Positions 3,203 to 38,675 of a stretch of 64,000 nt of DNA are shown in pieces. The position numbers and the translations under genes were made by a program. The stretch comes from a virus. Lineage: Duplodnaviria; Caudoviricetes. The notes beneath the pieces were generated by a model that was not told the origin of the DNA, did no database searches, and saw nothing but the letters and a program-made list of their open reading frames with translations. The number at the start of each line of letters is the position of its first letter. Positions within the stretch are counted from its first letter, which is position 1. Location of the stretch: positions 4,922-68,921 of IMG/VR virus record IMGVR_UViG_3300037467_001552; one strand, given 5' to 3'.

Positions 3203-3265
3203 GGAGCGGGTGATCTGACGCCGGGCGGCTGAGCGGCCGGTATTCCTTAAATCGAAAGACCTCCG

Positions 3266-3748
3266 ATGAACCGCTTCCTGGCGGCGCTGGCGCTCGCCTG
3301 CGCGCTGTACAGTCATGCCTGGGCTGCCGACGCGGACGGCATCATCCCGGATCCGAAGCTCTCGCCCGGAGCCCAGCCGACGCAGGATCTGGACATCATC
3401 TGCCACCAGAAGACGGGCGAGCGCCGGCACACGACGGAAGCCGAGAAGAACGCGGTCTACCGCGCCTATGGGCTCAAGACCCACCGCTCTGGCTTCTGCT
3501 CCGGCCCGCACGGCTGCGTCATCGACCACATCACCCCGCTTGAATGCGGCGGGCAGGATGTGACGGCCAACATGTTCCCGCAGAAAGCGGACGGCCCATA
3601 CAATCAAGCGAAGAAAAACAGGCTTGAGGGACTGTGCCACAAGCTGGTCTGCGAAGGCAAGATCACGCCAGCCCAAGGTCAGGCGTGGTTCATGCCGGAC
3701 TGGCGCGTCGAATACGACAAGCGATTTGGCTCGAAAGGCAAGTCATGA
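3266..3748 (+). CDS. Signal-peptide-bearing HNH-fold nuclease-like protein
   Basis: N-terminal signal MNRFLAALALACALYSHAWA; VIDHITPLECGG..ANMFPQ..KNRLE HNH-like motif. Confidence 0.65.
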   Translation: MNRFLAALALACALYSHAWAADADGIIPDPKLSPGAQPTQDLDIICHQKTGERRHTTEAEKNAVYRAYGLKTHRSGFCSGPHGCVIDHITPLECGGQDVTANMFPQKADGPYNQAKKNRLEGLCHKLVCEGKITPAQGQAWFMPDWRVEYDKRFGSKGKS

Positions 3749-4077
3749 CCGGCCCCGTCTCCTGGCTCCTCGCGCGCCCGCTCATCACGCACACCCTGCT
3801 CGCTGCGGGCTACACGCTGCTGATCGCGACCGTGCTCGGGCTGCTCCACGTCGCGCACGCGCCGATCATCGCCACGCTGATCGTCTCGCCGTTCTGGTAC
3901 GGCCGCGAGGCCGGACAGCGCGAGCACGACCTGAAGAACATGGGCGTCTCTCCGCTCTGGGCGTGGCTCGGGGCCGAGTTCGCCTTCAAGTGGGACGTGA
4001 GCAACGCGCAGCAGTGGGGCGTCGCCGCCGGCTCCAGCGCCGTCGTCGCCACGATCCTGACCATCCTGGGAGCGTGA
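3745..4077 (+). CDS. Multi-pass membrane protein (lysis region)
   Basis: ATGA overlap with upstream gene; 3 hydrophobic segments; precedes endolysin. Confidence 0.65.
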   Translation: MTGPVSWLLARPLITHTLLAAGYTLLIATVLGLLHVAHAPIIATLIVSPFWYGREAGQREHDLKNMGVSPLWAWLGAEFAFKWDVSNAQQWGVAAGSSAVVATILTILGA

Positions 4078-4657: not shown

Positions 4658-5067
4658 TGTTCGCGATCCTGGGCTTCGTCTTCAATGCGCTCGGCCCGCT
4701 CGTCTCGTCCGTAATGGGCTACTTCACGGCGAAGTCGAACAACGCCGTCGCGACCAACGGCCAGAACGTCACGGGCGATGTCACGGTCGCGCAGGCGCAG
4801 ATCAGCGCCCAGGTCGAGCAGCAGAAGCTCGCGGCAAGCGAGCGAGCGCAACTCGCCGAGAGCGCGTGGACGGTCTGGATGCTCCCGGAAGTGTTCGCGA
4901 TCTCCAGCCTGCACTACGCGACCATCGTCATCGACTCGATCTTTCACCTGAACTGGCAGATCGCCAAGCTGCCCCCGCCCTTCGATGATCTTGAGGTCAA
5001 GATCATCATGACCGGCGCAGGTATCGCAGGCGGCGTCGCGGCCTACCGGCGCATCTTCGGGAAGTGA
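4657..5067 (+). CDS. Lysis-associated membrane protein (holin-like)
   Basis: N-terminal and C-terminal hydrophobic segments, basic C-terminus RRIFGK, coupled to the endolysin stop. Confidence 0.55.
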   Translation: MFAILGFVFNALGPLVSSVMGYFTAKSNNAVATNGQNVTGDVTVAQAQISAQVEQQKLAASERAQLAESAWTVWMLPEVFAISSLHYATIVIDSIFHLNWQIAKLPPPFDDLEVKIIMTGAGIAGGVAAYRRIFGK

Positions 5068-13072: not shown

Positions 13073-13732
13073 GTGCGCGTTCTGACCCTCGTCACCCAGA
13101 AGGGTGGCACCGGAAAATCCGCCTTGACCGTGAGCCTCGCCGTCGCGGCCGAGGCTGCCGGCGAGCGCGTCTGCGTCCTCGATCTCGACCCACAGGGCAC
13201 GTCCGCGAGCTGGTACGAGACCCGTACCGCCGAGACGCCGGCTGTGCTCGACCACAACCAAGCGGGCTCGGTGCCCGAAACGCTGGCGCGGCTGAGCGCT
13301 GCCGGCTTCACCCTGACGATCATCGACACGCCGGGCATCGACAGCCATGCGACGCGCGGGGCGATGCGTGAGGCCACGCTGGCCCTCGTTCCCGTCCGGC
13401 CGAGCGAGGCCGACGTAAAGGCCACGATGCCGACCGTGCGCGCCCTGGAGGGCATGGGGCGGCCGTATGCCTTGGTCATCAATCAGGCCCCGACCAACCG
13501 TCAGGCGCGGCTCACGACGGCCGTCACGATGCGGCTGAGCACGTCGGGCGAGGTCGCCCCCGTGCCGGTCGCCGCGCGGATTGATCACCAGTACGCCTAT
13601 GCCTTGGGGCAGGGCGTCCATGAGTATGCCCCCGCCGGTAAGGCTGCGGCCGAGATCGGCGAGTTGTGGGCATGGGTCAGCAAGCGAATGGGAGCGCGCG
13701 ATGGCACCGCCGAAAAGAAACGCCGCGCTTGA
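13073..13732 (+). CDS. parA: ParA family partition ATPase (short, type Ib-like)
   Basis: TQKGGTGKS deviant Walker A, VLDLDPQG, IIDTPG, INQAP. Confidence 0.93.
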   Translation: MRVLTLVTQKGGTGKSALTVSLAVAAEAAGERVCVLDLDPQGTSASWYETRTAETPAVLDHNQAGSVPETLARLSAAGFTLTIIDTPGIDSHATRGAMREATLALVPVRPSEADVKATMPTVRALEGMGRPYALVINQAPTNRQARLTTAVTMRLSTSGEVAPVPVAARIDHQYAYALGQGVHEYAPAGKAAAEIGELWAWVSKRMGARDGTAEKKRRA

Positions 13733-18091: not shown

Positions 18092-18478
18092 ATGTCGGAG
18101 AGAGAGGAAATGATCCGGGTTCGGACGGCGTACCAGATCGTCGGATCTCTCCCGATCGACAACTTCCCGCGCGCAGCGGCTGTGCTGCGCAGGGTGATCC
18201 GCATCCTCGACAACAATTACGCCGATTGCTGGGGCGCCAAGATCGGGATTGACGCGTCGGTTCTGGACACCTTCGCGACGGACCCTGTCGACAGCGATAT
18301 CGTCGACGCCGCGCTGGAGATCGTGATGAGGCTCCCGCGGGATAATATGCTGGAGACGCGCGTGATCCTGGATCACGTCGTTCGGTATTTTGTCTCCGAC
18401 GTCCAGAAGCACTGGAGCCAGATCGGTCGCGGCCCGATCCGCGAGCTGCTGCGCGTGATTGAGGGCGGCGCGGCTTAA
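18092..18478 (+). CDS. Hypothetical protein with internal duplication
   Basis: IVGSLPIDNFPRAAAVLRRVIRIL..W and IVMRLPRDNMLETRVILDHVVRYF..W. Confidence 0.6.
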   Translation: MSEREEMIRVRTAYQIVGSLPIDNFPRAAAVLRRVIRILDNNYADCWGAKIGIDASVLDTFATDPVDSDIVDAALEIVMRLPRDNMLETRVILDHVVRYFVSDVQKHWSQIGRGPIRELLRVIEGGAA

Positions 18479-18861
18479 CGCGCGCTCGCCAGATGGTTCG
18501 ACCGCTTCGGGGCAACCGGTCCGCCGCCCATCATGTCGCGCTTCCGCTTCCGGGCATGGCGGATCTCCTGGATCCGCTCCCGGTACGAGGGGAGAATGGT
18601 CCCGTCGAGCCCGCGATAGATCCAATCAGTCGTGAGGCCGGGGAAGCGGTCACAGATCGCGATGGCGGCGTCGGACGTGATTTTGTGGATGTCCCGCTCG
18701 TACTGCGACCAGGCCGGCTGCTTGATCCCGACGACCGCACACCAATCCTGCTGCACCGTGTACCCGAGGGCTTCGCGCAGGATGCCAAGCCGAGCCGCGG
18801 TTGCCTCCCTGGATGAGGGCGGGAAATCCGTGTCGATCACCAGAGCCTCTTTCTTTGGCAT
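18475..18861 (-). CDS. XRE-family HTH repressor (CI-like, no S24 peptidase domain)
   Basis: RLGILREALGYTVQQDWCAVVGIKQPAWSQYE..TTDWIYRG; divergent from a Cro-like gene. Confidence 0.8.
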   Translation of the reverse strand: MPKKEALVIDTDFPPSSREATAARLGILREALGYTVQQDWCAVVGIKQPAWSQYERDIHKITSDAAIAICDRFPGLTTDWIYRGLDGTILPSYRERIQEIRHARKRKRDMMGGGPVAPKRSNHLASAR

Positions 18862-28008: not shown

Positions 28009-28734
28009 GTGGCGAACAAGCTGAACAAGATCCGCAAGCGGCTCGAGGCCAAGGCCACGCCGCAGCACAACAGCCGGATCGAGGCGCCCTATGTCGCCGC
28101 GCAGGTCCGCTATGTGCCGCTCGGCGAGGATGAGCGGATCTCGCCGCCCGCTATCGCCAACGACCTCACCTGGTACGCGATCATGGTCCGCCCCGGCACG
28201 CATCGCCGGGTGCTGGCGGCCATGAAGCGCGCCGCGATCGTCACCTACTGTCCGGTCGAGACGCGCTGGGCGTTCCGCGCCCGCTCGAACGTCAAGGAGG
28301 AGACGCAGCGCCCGCTGTTCGGCTCGATCCTGTTCATCGGCACCGATGAGCGCACGAACTGGGTCGCGATCCGGTTCAACGATGACGTGCCCGGCGTGCT
28401 TTCGAACTACGGCAAGCCGATCGCGATCCCGCGCGATGACCTGCGCGCGCTGGCCGACCGCGAGCGTTTCGGCGGGTTCAAGGGCGGCAAAGAAGACCTG
28501 CCGAAGCCCGCGGTCGAGCCCGAGCCCGTAGTGGTCACAGCCTCGGGGATCAAGCTCGGCGATGTCGCGCAATTCGGCGAGGGCATCTTCGTCGGCGCCG
28601 AGGTCGACGTCGTCGGCCTCCAGGATAACGAGGCCAAAGTGGTGCTCAAGCACTTCCGGTCCGCCTCGATCATGCGCGTGCCGGTGAGCATGTTGCAGCC
28701 GGTGGCGAAGGTTGAGGTCGAGGTAGTGGCATGA
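28009..28734 (+). CDS. NusG/RfaH-family transcription antiterminator
   Basis: NGN domain WYAIMVRPG..RPLFGSILFIG; KOW domain IKLGDVAQFGEGIFVG. Confidence 0.85.
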   Translation: MANKLNKIRKRLEAKATPQHNSRIEAPYVAAQVRYVPLGEDERISPPAIANDLTWYAIMVRPGTHRRVLAAMKRAAIVTYCPVETRWAFRARSNVKEETQRPLFGSILFIGTDERTNWVAIRFNDDVPGVLSNYGKPIAIPRDDLRALADRERFGGFKGGKEDLPKPAVEPEPVVVTASGIKLGDVAQFGEGIFVGAEVDVVGLQDNEAKVVLKHFRSASIMRVPVSMLQPVAKVEVEVVA

Positions 28735-28880
28735 CGGAGAAGGAGCGCGCTAGCCGCGCTCAAACCCGACGCGTTCTGCTGATCCGATTGAAGCGGCTGG
28801 AAGACACGATCCGGCTGGCGCGGTCTGACATGACCTACATCCGCAAGCTCATCGCCGAGCTAGAGGCGGGCGAGCAATGA
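28731..28880 (+). CDS. Small hypothetical protein
   Basis: ATGA-coupled, 49 aa. Confidence 0.45.
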   Translation: MTEKERASRAQTRRVLLIRLKRLEDTIRLARSDMTYIRKLIAELEAGEQ

Positions 28881-28963
28881 CCGCCTTCGACGTCGTCCGC
28901 ACCGTCGCCGGCTACGTCACGGTCGCTCTGATCGTCTACATCTCGACGTTTCTGTACATCTGA
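28877..28963 (+). CDS. Small membrane peptide
   Basis: MTAFDVVRTVAGYVTVALIVYISTFLYI*. Confidence 0.4.
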   Translation: MTAFDVVRTVAGYVTVALIVYISTFLYI

Positions 28964-29086
28964 CGCTTGCGCGACGGCCCGATCAGGCTATCGTGCAAGC
29001 ATAGTCGCGCCCATATACGTGTATATACTCTTAGTTTTATTTAACACTTTCAATTTTATGAGAAGAATTTCTTAACAACAACAGGC

Positions 29087-29114
29087 TTGACAGGGCAATC
29101 GGCGCTCATATACT
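29087..29114 (+). promoter_or_regulatory. Strong sigma70 promoter with AT-rich upstream region
   Basis: ttgaca-16 nt-tatact; 28990-29085 is very AT-rich. Confidence 0.75.
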
Positions 29115-29119
29115 TGAGG

Positions 29120-29530
29120 GCATAGCGAGTGTTCCGGCCAGAAGGCGAACGCCTCAACGCTGCCGTAGAACCTGTCGCCGCGCCGCCCGATCGGGCAGAG
29201 CACGTCGACCGCAAAGTGCGAAGCTATGCTTTCGCGATCCCATGAAATTCCAAGTTTGATGCCGGCGCGATGCGGGGGTCTTGCCCGATTGACCCGCTGA
29301 GTGCTGGCATCAATCTCTTGTCGCTGAGGACGGAATGCCGCCGTCGCCCCTGCTGTGTTGTCCGGCGGGGGAGAAGCCGAGTTTAGCGCCGGCCAGCGTC
29401 AATCCCATCGACCACGCCGGAACAACATCCCTCGGACAGTAAGAGTCCGCGCCTCTGGTCGACCTTCGATGCGGCAGTACCCTGCCGGTATCCGGCTCCT
29501 GGCGAGCCCGCATCGACCCCTTTCCCCGAG
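29120..29530 (+). ncRNA. Candidate long structured leader RNA
   Basis: No credible ORF; helices 29120-29126/29223-29229, 29256-29266/29303-29313, 29466-29474/29508-29516. Confidence 0.45.
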
Positions 29531-29536
29531 ACCGCC

Positions 29537-33328: not shown

Positions 33329-33664
33329 CTATGACCTTTCTGGAGATGCTGGCCGAGGACGAAGCGACACCAACTGCGCCGCACGTTCCGGACCAAGACG
33401 CCGCGCCAGCTCGGCCCGCATGTCGGCGCCGTCGGGGCCGTTGACCGCCCAGGCCGCGCCGAAGCTGATCGACCAGAACACCATCAGCCGCATGTAGCCG
33501 AGCGCCCATTCCGGCGGCGCGGACTTGCCCTTGTAGAACGCCTTGGCCGCGTTCTCGGTCGAGCCCGTCAGCTCGGCAAACTCGGCAACACTCATCCGGA
33601 GCAGGGCGAGCCCGGCGCGGAACTCTTCACAGGCTTGCGCCTGGGCTTGCTCTTCTGGGGTCAC
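33329..33664 (-). CDS. HTH-containing protein
   Basis: FRAGLALLRMSVAEFAELTGSTENAAKAFYKG. Confidence 0.65.
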   Translation of the reverse strand: MTPEEQAQAQACEEFRAGLALLRMSVAEFAELTGSTENAAKAFYKGKSAPPEWALGYMRLMVFWSISFGAAWAVNGPDGADMRAELARRLGPERAAQLVSLRPRPASPERS

Positions 33665-34002
33665 GCGGCATCCTCTTCCGCCTCAGGCAGACGAAAGCCG
33701 TCCGCCTCGAGGCTCTTGATCAGGCGATAGACGATTTCGGCGTTCATGGAGCGCCCGTTCGCGCTGGCGATGGTCGCGATCTGGGCGCGCAGCGCTTCCG
33801 GCATCCTGATCTTGAACTGTGGCGAGTCCTGCGGGACGATAGGCATGGGCCTCATGAACGGGGAGGGCATCTTCTCCGTCACTGTCACTGAAGCCTCCGT
33901 GTCCTGAAAGTGACTCCAGATCAGTTCGAGCAGTGCGCGCGCAACGGCCTGATCGTCGCCGTCCGCGGCCAGTTCGACTAGGAAAGTGCGCTTCGACATC
34001 AC
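33661..34002 (-). CDS. Arc-like DNA-binding protein
   Basis: PQFKIRMPEALRAQIATIASANGRSMNAEIVYRL. Confidence 0.85.
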   Translation of the reverse strand: MMSKRTFLVELAADGDDQAVARALLELIWSHFQDTEASVTVTEKMPSPFMRPMPIVPQDSPQFKIRMPEALRAQIATIASANGRSMNAEIVYRLIKSLEADGFRLPEAEEDAA

Positions 34003-34553
34003 TGCGCCTCCAAAATCCGAAACACGCTGCGCGTGCCGATCCCAACGCGGCGCGCCGCCTCGGCCTTGCTGAAGCCTTCCGCGATCAGGGCCCGCACCTG
34101 ATCGGACTTGGCGAGCGCGGTCGGCGCACGGCCCTTGTACTTGCCCGCGGCTTTGGCCTTGTCGACGCCTTCGCGCTGGCGCTCGAGCATCATTTCCCGC
34201 TCGAACTGGGCGATCGAGGCCATGAGGTTCATCTGAAGTTTCCCGGTTGGCGTGCCGGTGTCGATGCCCAGGCTAACGACCCGGAGCGCTGCGCCCTTGG
34301 CCTCAAGCCGCGCTTGGATCGCGCAGAAATGCTGCACCGAGCGCGCAAGGCGGTCGAGCTTGGTCACGACCAACGTGTCACCCTCGCGGCAGTAGTCGAC
34401 CGCCGCCTCGAGCTGCGCGCGCGACGCGACCGATGACACCTGTTCCTGAAAGACCTTCTCGCAGCCGAGCGCTTTCAGGTCTCTGATCTGGGCCTCGAAA
34501 CCGGCGACTTGCTCGGCGGTCGAGGTGCGGGCGTAGCCGATAAGCATGGTCAC
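33999..34553 (-). CDS. Small serine recombinase (resolvase/invertase)
   Basis: IGYARTST catalytic Ser, VVTKLDRLARS, ERQREG, C-terminal HTH. Confidence 0.95.
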   Translation of the reverse strand: MTMLIGYARTSTAEQVAGFEAQIRDLKALGCEKVFQEQVSSVASRAQLEAAVDYCREGDTLVVTKLDRLARSVQHFCAIQARLEAKGAALRVVSLGIDTGTPTGKLQMNLMASIAQFEREMMLERQREGVDKAKAAGKYKGRAPTALAKSDQVRALIAEGFSKAEAARRVGIGTRSVFRILEAQ

Positions 34554-34852
34554 GCCTCCTCTTCACCGAGGCCGAGCGCCTCAGAGACCGCTTGATCGGC
34601 GAGCGCTAGAACGGCGTAGGCCCCTTCCCGCGTGTCGCCCTCAAGCCAGTTTGCGGCAATCTGGAGCGCATCTAGGAGCGCGGGCGCCGCAGCGATAAGG
34701 CGAGCATTCGCGGCAGCCTCTCGGCGCGGGACCTGGCCCGCCCAGACGGTCGCGATGCAGTGCTCGCCCATATAGACCGCGGGATGGTTGATCCCGTCGT
34801 CGTCTAGGTCCGAGGGCTCCCACGGTCCCGGCGTGTGTACTGGCTTGTTCAT
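34550..34852 (-). CDS. Phage early protein of HTPGPW...ANARLxAAAP family
   Basis: HTPGPW...ANARLIAAAPALL. Confidence 0.7.
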   Translation of the reverse strand: MNKPVHTPGPWEPSDLDDDGINHPAVYMGEHCIATVWAGQVPRREAAANARLIAAAPALLDALQIAANWLEGDTREGAYAVLALADQAVSEALGLGEEEA

Positions 34853-34885
34853 GATATCCTCTGGGCATCTGCCCGGTTGCGATGG

Positions 34886-35326
34886 TTAGATCTTAGCGTT
34901 CTGTTTGGCCGTGTCAACTGCGGACTTGAGCTTTCGCTGGCCTTCCTCAACAGCCGCCTCAATGGTCTCGACGCCGAGGCCGAGGCAGGCCAGCAGATAG
35001 AGCTGCATGGCCTCCGGTGCCGTTGACGTGCCGTTGGCGTACTTCGCCACGGTGACCGGGTGCGCGGCGACCAGCTCGGCCGCCTGGTCGTTCGTCAGCT
35101 CGAGCAGGTCGAGCACCTGGCCGAATGGCGCGCGTTCCTCGAACGGCTTGACCGGGCCAGGCCGACGCCGCGCCGGGATCTCGCCGCGGAAATCCGACTT
35201 CAGGCCGTTGGCCTTCAAGACCTGGCGCACACGCTCGCGCGATATGCCGAGGTCGTCCGCGATGGCCGATGTGTTCTTGCCCTTGGCGACGTTGTAGAGG
35301 GACAGGATCTGGTCTGCTGTGGACAT
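34886..35326 (-). CDS. Double-HTH DNA-binding protein
   Basis: IADDLGISRERVRQVL (sigma70 region-4-like) and XRE-like QAAELVAAHPVTVAKYANG. Confidence 0.75.
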   Translation of the reverse strand: MSTADQILSLYNVAKGKNTSAIADDLGISRERVRQVLKANGLKSDFRGEIPARRRPGPVKPFEERAPFGQVLDLLELTNDQAAELVAAHPVTVAKYANGTSTAPEAMQLYLLACLGLGVETIEAAVEEGQRKLKSAVDTAKQNAKI

Positions 35327-35366
35327 GGTGGCGGTTCCTTTGAACCCCTCAAGGGGATGGCTGATG

Positions 35367-35567
35367 TCAGTCGGCTAGTCCGCGCTGGCGCAGGAAGTCT
35401 TGAGCCATCGCCTTGAAGTCCGCGTTGTCCGGCAGGTCTTTATCCGCCGCGATGCATTCCTGGATGGTCATAAAGATCAGGTCTCGCTCATCCTCGGAGT
35501 CCGCATCGCGGTAGGCTTTGGCTAGCTCATCCCACTTCGGTTCGCCATTCTCGATTAAGACTTGCAT
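35367..35567 (-). CDS. Small acidic hypothetical protein
   Basis: MQVLIENGEPKWDELAKAY...; RBS ggaggatagg. Confidence 0.55.
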   Translation of the reverse strand: MQVLIENGEPKWDELAKAYRDADSEDERDLIFMTIQECIAADKDLPDNADFKAMAQDFLRQRGLAD

Positions 35568-35652
35568 CGTCCTATCCTCCGGTTTCGTGCCCCGACCTTC
35601 AGCGCACGGCGCTCCCCATCTGGCGTGATGGGGAGAACGGTGGGCTGTGGGG

Positions 35653-35955
35653 TCAACGATAGAACCGAACGGTTTCGGGCGCGTCATGCTCGGCCACAAC
35701 GTGAGCCTTAGCCGCCTCCCGATCGCGGGCCCGGAAGAACACCGTTTCGCCCGTGTGATCCATCGCCACCCAAAGCGCCTGGCCGAGGCCCCAGTAAGCG
35801 CCGCCGGCATCGTAACCGCCCGAGTTGAGGCGGACGCGCTGGAGCTGGAGCCGCTCGGCCGTATCCAGGTTGACCATGGTGCCGGAGCGCCGGCCCATCG
35901 GGGCGCCGTAGCGGCTGGAGACGTCCGGGGTCGGGTTGAAGGTCTGAGCGGTCAT
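35653..35955 (-). CDS. Conserved phage hypothetical protein
   Basis: SRYGAPMGR..LQRVRLNSGGYDAGGAYWG. Confidence 0.75.
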   Translation of the reverse strand: MTAQTFNPTPDVSSRYGAPMGRRSGTMVNLDTAERLQLQRVRLNSGGYDAGGAYWGLGQALWVAMDHTGETVFFRARDREAAKAHVVAEHDAPETVRFYR

Positions 35956-36030
35956 TGATCCGGTTCCTTCTGTTGGGCTGCTGCCCGGTTGCGATGAAGC
36001 TAACTTAGCTCACTGATTTCATCGTGTCAA

Positions 36031-36068
36031 CTAGGCCCCGACAAAAAAGTTGCGGGGCCTAGCGTTTT
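36031..36068. terminator. Hairpin abutting the -35 box of a cassette promoter
   Basis: ctaggccccg...cggggcctag then cgttttt. Confidence 0.5.
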
Positions 36069-36075
36069 TCTGGCC

Positions 36076-36192
36076 TCAGGGATCGTACCGCATGCGCCAG
36101 GCGAGCGCGGCCGATGCCAGGAACAGCATGGCGCACGTCGTGAGCACGCCCGAGCTGTAGGACAGGATTTCGATCGTCGTTTGCGCGTGCAT
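36076..36192 (-). CDS. Small membrane peptide
   Basis: MHAQTTIEILSYSSGVLTTCAMLFLASAALAWRMRYDP*. Confidence 0.4.
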   Translation of the reverse strand: MHAQTTIEILSYSSGVLTTCAMLFLASAALAWRMRYDP

Positions 36193-36196
36193 GGCG

Positions 36197-36607
36197 TCAC
36201 CGGGCCGGGACGCGATGCGGGAACGGCTTGCGGCAGTAGCGGAACTCCGCATCCACCTCGGCCTGGCGGCAGTCGAAGCGCGCGGGGTTGGCGGGGGATG
36301 AGGCTGGCAGCTCGCCGGCGCACCATTCCACTTCGGTGTCGGTCGCGGCGCGGCTGCAATCGTTCAGGCCGCCCCATTGGTTGCGGAAGTAGGCTTGAGG
36401 CGCGCCGTCCGCCTCGTCGTCGTCGGTCTCCGCATAGTCGGCGGGCGTTGCGCCAACGCATGCCTCTATCTGAACCGCGGTCGCGCTGGCCTTGCAGTAG
36501 CGTGCGCCGTCGACCGTGGTTCGCGTATGCGCATCGGCCGGCGTTGCGAGATAGACCGTGGCCGCCGTGGCGATGCCGCATGCGGCCGCAATGAGGATGG
36601 CGCGCAT
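36197..36607 (-). CDS. Secreted Cys-rich protein
   Basis: Signal peptide MRAILIAAACGIATAATVYLATPADA; several Cys. Confidence 0.55.
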   Translation of the reverse strand: MRAILIAAACGIATAATVYLATPADAHTRTTVDGARYCKASATAVQIEACVGATPADYAETDDDEADGAPQAYFRNQWGGLNDCSRAATDTEVEWCAGELPASSPANPARFDCRQAEVDAEFRYCRKPFPHRVPAR

Positions 36608-36817
36608 GTTAGCGGTTCCCCTTGCTGGCGTCACGGGCGTTGAGGATGGTGTGACCTGCCGCCCAGAGGGCACCGGTGGCCGTTGCCGCGCATGCGAGCG
36701 CTATTGCGATGATGGCTGTCATTGTCGTTCCTTGGGCTGCTGCCCGGTTGCGGTGTGATGTGAGCTAGGCACATCGTGCGAGGCCGGTTCGCACACCCGG
36801 CCTCGAGGCGATGGGTC

Positions 36818-37144
36818 TTAGCGGATGGCGCCGAGCAAGCGCGAGAGGCGGTTGTAGCTCGCCGGTGTGATGTTGCGCGGCGGGTGGAGCGAATAGCGGG
36901 TCTCTGCGCCAGTGTGAAAGTTGGTGTCCGTCCAGGTCGCCTCAAACCAACGGCCGCAATCCCAAACCGAGCTAGAGACCTGGCGAACCGCGCCGCGGAG
37001 GTCGAAAGCGTAATCGTTCAGATCCTCAACCCGGTCGAGCGTGTCACGGCCGCCGTTGGGGTGAACATAGCCGCGGTCAGCCGCGTCGCCTTCCTCCGCG
37101 CTCTCGGGGGTGACGGTCTCGTAAGTGACATGAAAGCGGACCAT
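36818..37144 (-). CDS. Hypothetical phage protein
   Basis: VTYETVTPESAEEGDAADRG..GAETRYSLH; RBS taggag. Confidence 0.7.
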   Translation of the reverse strand: MVRFHVTYETVTPESAEEGDAADRGYVHPNGGRDTLDRVEDLNDYAFDLRGAVRQVSSSVWDCGRWFEATWTDTNFHTGAETRYSLHPPRNITPASYNRLSRLLGAIR

Positions 37145-37239
37145 TTCCGTATCTCCTAGGGCTGCTGCCCGGTTGCGATGGGTGTAAGTTAGCCGATTGA
37201 TTTGGTGGTGTCAACTGGGGCCGGTGAAATTTTTTCGGG

Positions 37240-37356
37240 TTACAGCTTGAAGAAACGTGCCCGCAGGTAATCGGCATGCGCCGCGGCCTGCTCACGGGTG
37301 CGGAAGTCGAGGTCGAGGACACCGCCGGTCGGGAGAATGAAGCGGTAGAAGGTCAT
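37240..37356 (-). CDS. Small hypothetical protein
   Basis: MTFYRFILPTGGVLDLDFRTREQAAAHADYLRARFFKL*, first gene after the outermost cassette promoter. Confidence 0.5.
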   Translation of the reverse strand: MTFYRFILPTGGVLDLDFRTREQAAAHADYLRARFFKL

Positions 37357-37504
37357 TGGCTTGGCTTTCGTTTGGGCGGCTGCCCGGTTGCGATGAAGCT
37401 AACTTAGTCGATCGGTTTTGCGGTGTCAACAGGGCATCGCGATTTTTTTTCGGTGCGCCTCGAGCTGGCGTGCGACCGCCCGGCGAGCCTGCGGCGGCGA
37501 TGGC

Positions 37505-38037
37505 GGATTCTAAGAGATTTCTAAGAAATCGCCCGGTTTCGACGGCACTTCGCCGAGCAAGTGCCGTAAAGTGCCGTAGGTTCGCAAACGCCGATTTCTG
37601 GTGTCCCGCCAAGGGGTTAGCCGCGCAGCGAGCCTCCGCGGGGTACGGCAGTACGGCAGTTGGTACGGCACTTCGTTTTCGGAAGTGCCGTAGGGTTAAC
37701 CGCCTGAACCGCAAGGGGAATTCCCGCCGGTACGGCACTACGGCACTTTTTCCCTTACTCCACGTAGGAGAGGAAAATAGGAAAGGGGCGCGCCTGCCTG
37801 CCCGCGGGTGTGCGGGCCCGCGTTTATTCCCCGTGTAGCGCCAAGTTGGGTTTTTGGTGCCGTAGTGCCGTAAACGGCTCGGCAGCGCGGTTAAGTGCCT
37901 GCGGGGCAACGAAAAAAAGTACGGCACTTGGTACGGCACTTGGTACGGCACTTGTGGTTTCGAAGTGCCGTAAAGTGCCGTAAATGGCCCATTTCTGAAC
38001 GGACGTTCAGAATTTTCTTAGAAATCTCTTAGAATCC
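37505..38037. repeat. Iteron-rich non-coding locus bounded by perfect 24-bp inverted repeats (candidate pac/cos, ori or centromere)
   Basis: ggattctaagagatttctaagaaa (37505-37528) and its exact complement (38014-38037); 13 exact GTGCCGTA/TACGGCAC copies inside. Confidence 0.9.
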
Positions 38038-38060: not shown

Positions 38061-38675
38061 ATGGCTGGCACAAAGAGGCCGGCGACGGCGCCGGCTGATG
38101 CCAGCGACGCGCCTAAGGCGAAGCGGACCTACGCCAAGAACGGCGCGACCAAGCGCGAGGCGATGGAGGCTGTGCAGGCCGCTCGAGCTGCGACACCGAA
38201 GACCGGCAGGCCGCGCGAGTTCACGGCGGAGATGAAGGCGGAGATCATCCGCCGCATCGAGGCCGGCGAGCGCATGACCGCGATATGCCGGGATGCACAC
38301 CTGCCCGACGCGGCAACGGTCTACAGGGCGCGGTACAGCGACGTCGTCTTTTGCGCTGAACTCGCGCGCGCGAAGGAGGTGGCGGCACTGATCATGCTCG
38401 ACACCATGTTCGACGTGGCGTGGGACGATCGCCAGGACTGGGAGGCGGTCGAGCGGCGCGGCGCGACTGAGCACCGGGTCAACCGGGAGGCGGTCGAGCG
38501 GTCGAAGATCAAGATTGACCTCTGCAAATGGACGATGGCTCGCCATTACAAGGCGTTCTTCTCCGACGATGCCACCAAGATCACAGCGGAAACCGGAGAC
38601 GCCGCCTCGACGATCAAGCAGGACGCGACCGTCATCGCCCCGGACGAGCCTGGCCCTGACAAGCCTGTGCTGTGA
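38061..38675 (+). CDS. terS: Terminase small subunit
   Basis: GRPREFTAEMKAEIIRRIEAGERMTAICRDAHLPDAATVYR HTH; VERSKIKIDLCKWTMAR; position before terL. Confidence 0.85.
   Translation: MAGTKRPATAPADASDAPKAKRTYAKNGATKREAMEAVQAARAATPKTGRPREFTAEMKAEIIRRIEAGERMTAICRDAHLPDAATVYRARYSDVVFCAELARAKEVAALIMLDTMFDVAWDDRQDWEAVERRGATEHRVNREAVERSKIKIDLCKWTMARHYKAFFSDDATKITAETGDAASTIKQDATVIAPDEPGPDKPVL

Follow-up and report, generated by a model that had tools for sequence, protein, structure and literature searches.

Why are nearly the same 22 nucleotides (nt) repeated in front of one unrelated small gene after another in a tailed phage? This question is raised by a gene array in the 64,000-nt window analysed here, which covers positions 4,922–68,921 of the IMG/VR virus record IMGVR_UViG_3300037467_001552 (Duplodnaviria; Caudoviricetes; 68,921 bp, rated complete). 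Five co-oriented copies of the 22-nt block lie on the minus strand of the window, at 34863, 35975, 36734, 37159 and 37374. We propose that they are parts of plug-in expression modules that probably double as recombination seams, resembling the promoter-early stem-loops (PeSLs) of T4-type phages.

A scan of the window recovered the five copies listed in the initial annotation with 0–2 mismatches, against an expectation of none in 100 dinucleotide shuffles. The whole 68,921-bp record holds no sixth copy, and the repeat is confined to the array. Four of the five copies are preceded, as had been annotated, by the hexamers of a consensus sigma70-type promoter, in which TTGACA is followed after 17, 17, 17 and 16 nt (modules 1, 2, 4 and 5) by a −10 element of the form TAAGTT, TAACTT or TAAGAT; the leader begins 5 nt past the −10 element (Table 1). 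Only five exact TTGACA-16/17-TAnnnT sites exist genome-wide, four of them being the array promoters and the fifth lying at 29087 on the plus strand. Copy 3 lacks a sigma70 −35 hexamer and is preceded by a GC hairpin (36780–36804). Thus, the claim that every cassette is headed by a consensus sigma70 promoter and a leader holds for four copies and fails for the third. One copy of the block was also thought to overlap the end of the upstream open reading frame; at copy 5, however, it is the promoter that overlaps the last codons, since the stop codon of the upstream helix-turn-helix (HTH) gene is at 34886–34888 and the leader starts at 34884. From module 5 the array reads into a serine recombinase gene, in agreement with the earlier description. 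No Rfam family was found in the window.

Two relatives from IMG/VR, R1 (71,155 bp, eight copies) and R2 (70,369 bp, seven copies), were aligned with the window phage over 20 modules; IMG sample 3300037467 is the source of the relatives. The alignment revealed an invariant leader core, CGC-A-AC-N-GGGCA-R-NN-GCCC, and a GGGC-N4-GCCC hairpin is predicted in 19 of the 20 leaders. Among the 15 promoter-bearing modules of the three genomes, pairwise identity is 100% for the −35 segment, 53% for the spacer, 79% for the −10 segment, 35% for the 5-nt gap, 88% for the leader and 40% for the 12 nt past the leader. Given these low values on both sides, the leader is constrained separately from its flanks. 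The small terminase (TerS) proteins of the three phages are merely 49%–53% identical, yet the leader persists. Leaders within a genome are 94%–95% alike, compared with 84% between the window phage and R2, which has its own loop variant. TTGACA is invariant in all 15 promoter-bearing modules, with a spacer of 16–17 nt and a TAAGTT-type −10 element, and an A/T run of at least 6 nt lies within 30 nt upstream of the −35 element in 16/22 modules, versus 2.2% of background 30-mers. The block ends 10–20 nt before the start codon and excludes the Shine–Dalgarno (SD) sequence. The start codon is ATG in 56/58 modules, and ACC is the second codon in 9/28 and 20/30 modules, versus 6/113 genes in the genome. 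Repetition extends over whole modules of about 65–80 nt, the spacers showing residual similarity.

The arrays of R1, R2 and the more distant contig L285 (ten copies) occupy the same place, between the small terminase gene (terS) and a plasmid-type resolvase gene. The window phage, R1 and R2 keep a common scaffold, which consists of gene A, the membrane or secreted pair C2–C3, the HTH gene, the resolvase gene and a distal gene, and unrelated ORFans fill the slots just behind the leaders. L285 likewise retains gene A, C2–C3, the HTH gene and the resolvase gene, with different cargo. For example, E1 is missing from R1, where the leader abuts the resolvase start, and an unrelated gene for 77 amino acids (aa) stands in its place in R2; a 190-aa cassette between two modules is found in R1 and R2, not in the window phage. 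All eight downstream losses of homology among the three genomes fall between leader −7 and ATG +9. Reshuffling of cassettes at the repeat, as proposed in the initial annotation, is therefore supported by comparison: gene content and order are not fixed among relatives, contrary to what that annotation had named as refuting it, and homology breaks inside the modules. In sequence terms, the region between terS and the resolvase gene is a hyperplastic bank of ORFans. The cargo yielded no Pfam or PHROG function and no informative match in the ESM Atlas; all of it consists of ORFans without a family match, so that the suggested anti-defence role is unsupported.

Further contigs were reached through homologues of C2 and the HTH protein. 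L285 (35.9 kb) is syntenic with the window phage over terS, the array, the HTH gene and the resolvase gene, with a NusG paralogue further along. Its ten modules are co-oriented, and their leader reads CATCGAAAC followed by GCGGC-AGAC-GCCGC; compared with the hairpin of the window phage, one stem pair reads C-G in place of G-C, and the stem gains an outer G-C pair. In the 2-kb contig L279, a degenerate leader precedes the resolvase gene. A second phage group (L280, L282–284 and L286–288) has arrays of four to eight single-gene cassettes on its longer contigs. Its module has a TATAAG-type −10 element, usually preceded by a hairpin with the −35 element in the loop, and a leader in which CATCGG and CCGACC enclose a variable interior. 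Folding begins at predicted nt +2 in all 31 of these leaders, with stems of 5–9 bp and loops of 3–8 nt. Counting of stem pairs from the stem base by script in 24 distinct hairpins revealed that pair 5 is G-C in 17, C-G in 6 and U-G in 1, and that pair 6 is C-G, U-A, U-G or A-U; the observed pairing was reached by 8 of 5000 partner shuffles. When the second-group hairpins were aligned by MAFFT and given to RNAalifold, only the invariant base was detected, the variable interior being misaligned. The variable arm spacing and the compensatory changes favour a hairpin that acts as a folded single strand, most simply mRNA, over a rigid duplex operator. Furthermore, homology blocks in the second group start and end at modules, and two cassettes stand in opposite order in L283 and L284. 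The C2 cargo family lies behind a different leader type in each phage group, and therefore cargo moves while the resident leader type stays.

These comparisons enable us to put forward a model that we regard as probable. The repeated unit would be an expression module of about 90 nt, with the 22-nt block as its transcribed leader. In this module, an A/T run or terminator-like hairpin is followed by TTGACAC, 16–17 nt, a GCTAAGTT-type −10 element and a predicted +1 at CATCG, and then by the short GC hairpin, the SD sequence and ATG, often as ATG-ACC. Every module would supply the small gene behind it with autonomous transcription by the host RNA polymerase and with strong translation signals. 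Being near-identical and co-oriented, the modules would also act as portable homology patches, and by recombining with one another, inside a single phage or across co-infecting relatives, they would bring about the gain, loss, replacement and reordering of cassettes. The hairpin most likely acts on RNA, as a 5′-proximal stem-loop protecting or marking short mRNAs. Since one module would drive a plasmid-type resolvase gene in a ParA-bearing phage, expression in the prophage state could equally apply in place of the immediate-early timing proposed in the initial annotation.

Several points weigh against this model or limit it. The array promoters and their +1 positions are consensus predictions. 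Three kinds of copy lack a recognisable promoter, and therefore the leader must do more than mark a transcript start. Where similarity resumes in the window group, at the left edges of homology blocks, there is usually a gene end, a conserved gene or a hairpin and no second module; ordinary mosaicism at gene boundaries thus accounts for part of the breakpoint pattern. As to the hairpin itself, its fold energy is unexceptional against shuffles (z −0.1 to −2.3, for a 4-bp stem). It starts about 9 nt from the predicted 5′ end, and about 9 unpaired nt is further than works for 5′ stabilisers of the ompA type; a protective 5′-proximal stem-loop would accordingly fit the second group well and the window phage less well. 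Because the window-group stem never varies within close lineages, the covariation amounts to one lineage-level change (L285) plus the second group, whose leader we infer to be homologous to that of the window phage. In a folding model, moreover, SD-to-ATG accessibility was the same with native, shuffled and deleted leaders, and a role of the leader as insulator of the ribosome-binding site found no support in this result.

The conservation of the leader could alternatively mean that it is a recognition site for a phage regulator that binds RNA or modifies RNA polymerase, so that the cassettes are switched or antiterminated jointly, be it as a nut/boxB-like site, as an ops/LoaP-like site for the phage-encoded NusG paralogue (a 241-aa protein with an NGN domain, 28009–28734) or as a translational operator. 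This explanation, its variants included, seems to us rather unlikely. It would account for the near-invariance of the 5′ flank CGCAAC, the stem and the first loop base across strongly diverged genomes, and for the genome-specific variants, which are as expected of cognate nut sites; copies with no promoter point to a role unconnected with transcript starts, between cassettes there are hairpins that lack U-tracts, and an NGN-domain protein is encoded in both the window phage and L285. On the other hand, module duplication and gene conversion alone can yield uniformity within a genome, and the second-group loop and upper stem differ freely among the copies of one genome, a poor fit for a protein that reads the loop. 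No resemblance to the Escherichia coli ops consensus is seen in the leader, the loop differs from the pentaloop of boxB, and none of the proteins scanned was recognised as N-like. The NusG paralogue also has a more obvious target: the sole other consensus promoter, TTGACA-16-TATACT at 29087 (+), lies just downstream of its gene and is followed by about 410 nt without a called gene (region 28009–29536), and the two likely form a pair of antiterminator and target. A search with the paralogue found no related viral loci. That the leader hairpin co-evolves with a phage factor, either this paralogue or the array-encoded HTH protein, is in our opinion unlikely. If it did, any gene recombined behind a resident leader would at once come under a phage-wide switch, and the array would be a gene-capture platform of phage-plasmids with its own promoter and regulatory address tag.

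The position of the block, at +1 to +22 and immediately downstream of the −10 element, is also the classic one for a repressor. A double-strand DNA operator like lacO1 or a stoperator, through which a phage repressor such as the two-HTH protein would silence all cassette promoters in one state of the life cycle, is nevertheless very unlikely in our judgement. The site is asymmetric and co-oriented in the window group, as are L5 stoperators and P1 C1 operators; the window group conserves the sequence strictly and not the structure alone, and the HTH protein is conserved inside the array in 4/4 window-group lineages. However, the second group keeps just the base of the inverted repeat, with an arm spacing that varies by several nt, which a rigid dimer site would not tolerate, and the second-group contigs examined have no HTH gene or resolvase gene beside the array. 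The compensatory change in L285 fits a folded strand, dyad symmetry does not extend beyond GGGC/GCCC, and promoter-less copies have nothing to repress. The neighbouring recombinase calls to mind integron-like excision and insertion of cassettes, with the repeats as crossover sites: the last leader is directly upstream of the recombinase gene in 4/4 window-group lineages, and cassettes differ between relatives with junctions near the repeat. Such a role is highly improbable, because the extended dyad symmetry of a dimer-bound serine-recombinase site is absent (4 bp at most by inspection), the junctions scatter from leader −7 to ATG +9 with no single fixed point, and the second group has modules and shuffling with no recombinase beside the array in the contigs examined; a resolvase like those of Methylobacterium plasmids, in a phage with ParA, fits plasmid multimer resolution instead. 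Finally, a leader without function, carried as a passenger in a recently duplicated promoter segment, would agree with the repetition of whole modules and the residual similarity of their spacers. It can hardly be credited in view of the island of conservation that the leader forms, its persistence across genomes with TerS about 50% identical, its occurrence without any promoter in three contexts, and the analogous hairpin kept by covariation in another phage group.

We thus return to the plug-in modules and to the genome that carries them. Transcription of the array runs leftward, out of a 600-bp control region adjoining an Sf6-type terS (38061–38675). The genome has 65% GC and encodes a ParA/MinD-type ATPase (13073–13732), a CI-like HTH_31 protein (18475–18861), a primase-helicase and a RecE-like nuclease; among the phage proteins scanned, none looked like an integrase. 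Given the ATPase, the CI-like protein and the small resolvase, together with this lack of an integrase, the phage looks like a plasmid-prophage, and it is probably temperate. The recombinase DNA is closest to resolvases of Methylobacterium plasmids, and the capsid has its closest cultured relatives in Ralstonia phages (67%) and Komagataeibacter phages (51%). These are hints alone, and the alphaproteobacterial host named in the initial annotation is not established by them. Megablast and blastn searches matched no cultured phage, and among plasmids they matched the resolvase gene alone. The array was not seen in the DNA examined of capsid-based relatives (52%–72% identity), and Ralstonia phage Raharianne has just the structural module in common with the window phage. 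Pattern scans of genome and metagenome contigs with the 17-base core gave only single chance matches among the matches listed, and no further relatives.

The features of the array are collected in Table 1, and some further observations concern its borders and contents. Between the first array promoter and terS, a perfect 24-bp inverted repeat (37505–37528 and 38014–38037) with TTCTAAGA-like units brackets 485 bp that are full of GTGCCGTA/TACGGCAC 8-mers in both orientations, and its right arm overlaps a promoter-like site just upstream of terS; this element could be a pac or TerS-binding region, an origin or an operator field. The region 36770–36800, upstream of the C-cluster leader (a hairpin, then CCTAGCTCA), is largely conserved in the window phage, R1, R2 and L285, and could hold a promoter for another sigma factor (GAACC-17-CTAGCT) instead of no promoter. 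Between D1 and D2, an 86-nt non-coding element (35565–35650, minus strand) is 95% identical in R1 despite differing flanking genes and holds a 21-nt imperfect inverted repeat (35600–35620 and 35627–35647); judged by this conservation, it is a second conserved boundary element. Elsewhere in the window, an HNH endonuclease gene (PF13392; 41474–42091) sits between the large terminase gene, which it follows directly, and the portal gene. In the second group, a gene with a Pfam match to Acb3 (anti-CBASS) is located at L280:149–994, a few kb from the array; in L286, three genes with faint or weak LAGLIDADG matches (241–879, 2003–2593 and 3258–3881) fill array slots without a leader module and may encode homing endonucleases inserted among the cassettes.

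Table 1. Features of the module array, in window coordinates and in the order of transcription
Feature	Coordinates	Strand	Elements and remarks
Module 1	37349–37453	−	A-run; −35 37424–37429; −10 37401–37406; leader 37374–37395; ATG 37354–37356; SD not clear
Gene A, 38 aa	37240–37356	−	Scaffold gene; common to R1 (94%) and R2 (73%)
Module 2	37134–37238	−	A-run; −35 37209–37214; −10 37186–37191; leader 37159–37180; SD and ATG
Cargo B, 108 aa	36818–37144	−	ORFan unique to the window phage; unrelated genes in the same slot of R1 and R2
GC hairpin	36780–36804	−	8-bp stem, no U-tract; same position in R1, R2 and L285 with a few changes
Leader copy 3	36734–36755	−	No sigma70 −35; heads the C cluster
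C cluster (C1, C2, C3)	36076–36722	−	
C1, 37 aa			Hydrophobic by inspection
C2, 136 aa			Signal-peptide-like and Cys-rich by inspection; present in both phage groups
C3, 38 aa			Hydrophobic by inspection
Module 4	35950–36060	−	Terminator-like hairpin 36033–36060; −35 36025–36030; −10 36002–36007; leader 35975–35996; SD and ATG
Cargo D1, 100 aa, and D2, 66 aa	35367–35955	−	D1 35653–35955; D2 35367–35567; unique ORFans
HTH gene, 146 aa	34886–35326	−	Scaffold gene; two HTH domains; 3′ end holds the module 5 promoter
Module 5	34838–34917	−	−35 34912–34917; −10 34890–34895; leader 34863–34884; SD and ATG
Cargo E1, 100 aa	34550–34852	−	phrog_1273, function unknown
Distal conserved genes	33329–34547	−	Read from module 5; serine recombinase 33999–34547, Arc/ribbon-helix-helix protein 33661–33999, 111-aa protein

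The model extends the PeSL idea, in which repeated regulatory cassettes both express ORFans and serve as shuffling seams, to GC-rich, probably temperate, plasmid-like phages. Two module versions unrelated in sequence, one invariant and the other covarying, constitute a natural experiment on the role of a 5′ leader hairpin for accessory genes. Furthermore, the modules mark exchangeable cargo at single-gene resolution in uncultivated phages, which offers a practical way of picking candidates for host-interaction or defence-related functions. In view of the strictness with which the window group conserves CGCAAC and the stem, of its genome-specific variants and of the copies without a promoter, a specific factor may be involved, and the NusG paralogue would be a candidate for it.

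How, then, does the array compare with known systems? Integron cassettes are promoterless and end in a folded attC, whereas those of the window phage carry their own promoters and have the repeat at the 5′ end; moreover, the neighbouring recombinase is a small serine resolvase/invertase and not an IntI tyrosine recombinase. The stoperators of L5 gp71 and the P1 C1 sites are asymmetric double-strand sites of fixed length to which the phage repressor binds; the site is asymmetric and co-oriented in the window group, whereas the analogous second-group element varies in length with compensatory changes. The 5′ untranslated region of ompA represents a type in which a 5′-terminal stem-loop stabilises the mRNA. 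As in that type, a GC hairpin would stand at the 5′ end of a short mRNA, or close to it, and directly upstream of the ribosome site, with a predicted start at nt +2 in the second group, but the unpaired nt before the hairpin in the window phage would weaken such protection. A nut site combines boxA with a boxB hairpin that has a GNRA-like pentaloop and is bound by a cognate arginine-rich N protein, and the ops element of the RfaH type is a 12-nt consensus in the leader of a long operon. What the modules have in common with nut, ops and LoaP systems is a small hairpin within a conserved leader element that closely follows the promoter, comes in phage-specific sequence variants and occurs in a phage encoding a NusG paralogue. 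The loop in the window phage, however, is a 4-nt A-R-N-N and not a GNRA-like pentaloop, and an N-like protein was not identified among the proteins scanned; the leader is unlike the Escherichia coli ops consensus, although other NusG paralogues may use other sites, and five to ten copies precede very short operons, as opposed to one or two before long ones.

The start-associated sequences (SAS) and extended SAS (ESAS) of Cluster K mycobacteriophages (Pope et al. 2011, PMC3203893) are, after the PeSLs, another partial analogue. The SAS is a 13-bp GGGATAGGAGCCC that contains the SD sequence and lies 3–7 bp from the start codon, and hairpin formation by the ESAS is not supported (PMC3203893). Both systems have short asymmetric GGG...CCC repeats, in one orientation and in the non-structural part of the genome, just upstream of the mostly ATG starts of unrelated genes. 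The block in the window phage differs from the SAS in its sequence, its distance of 10–20 nt from the start, the exclusion of the SD sequence and its coupling to a promoter, and from the ESAS in that its hairpin, like that of the second group, is backed by covariation.

The closest parallel is with the PeSLs of RB49/phi1, T4/PST and KVP40/nt-1, which are described for T4-type phages only; their stem-loop terminates the gene before it and stands ahead of the promoter (Arbiol et al. 2010, PMC2839356; Comeau et al. 2014, PMC4122927). As in those phages, small repeated composite cassettes that combine a GC stem-loop with a strong promoter of the sigma70 kind lie between ORFans in a hyperplastic region, A/T-rich tracts lie upstream of the promoters, and indel or replacement junctions in relatives fall between the −10 element and the start codon. 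In contrast, the window phage is of an unrelated type (65% GC, ParA, resolvase, probably temperate) with unrelated sequences, some of its copies are promoter-less, and the promoter precedes its conserved hairpin, which belongs to the mRNA leader, an arrangement that differs from that of the published PeSLs. Upstream terminator-like hairpins occur at some of its modules only (36033–36060), while most second-group modules have one, with the −35 element in its loop. The PeSL analogue suggested by the initial annotation therefore stands with respect to self-contained promoter-leader cassettes that are reshuffled at the repeat, and does not stand with respect to the place of the hairpin: the modules are not PeSLs in the strict sense, and the working principle is the same.

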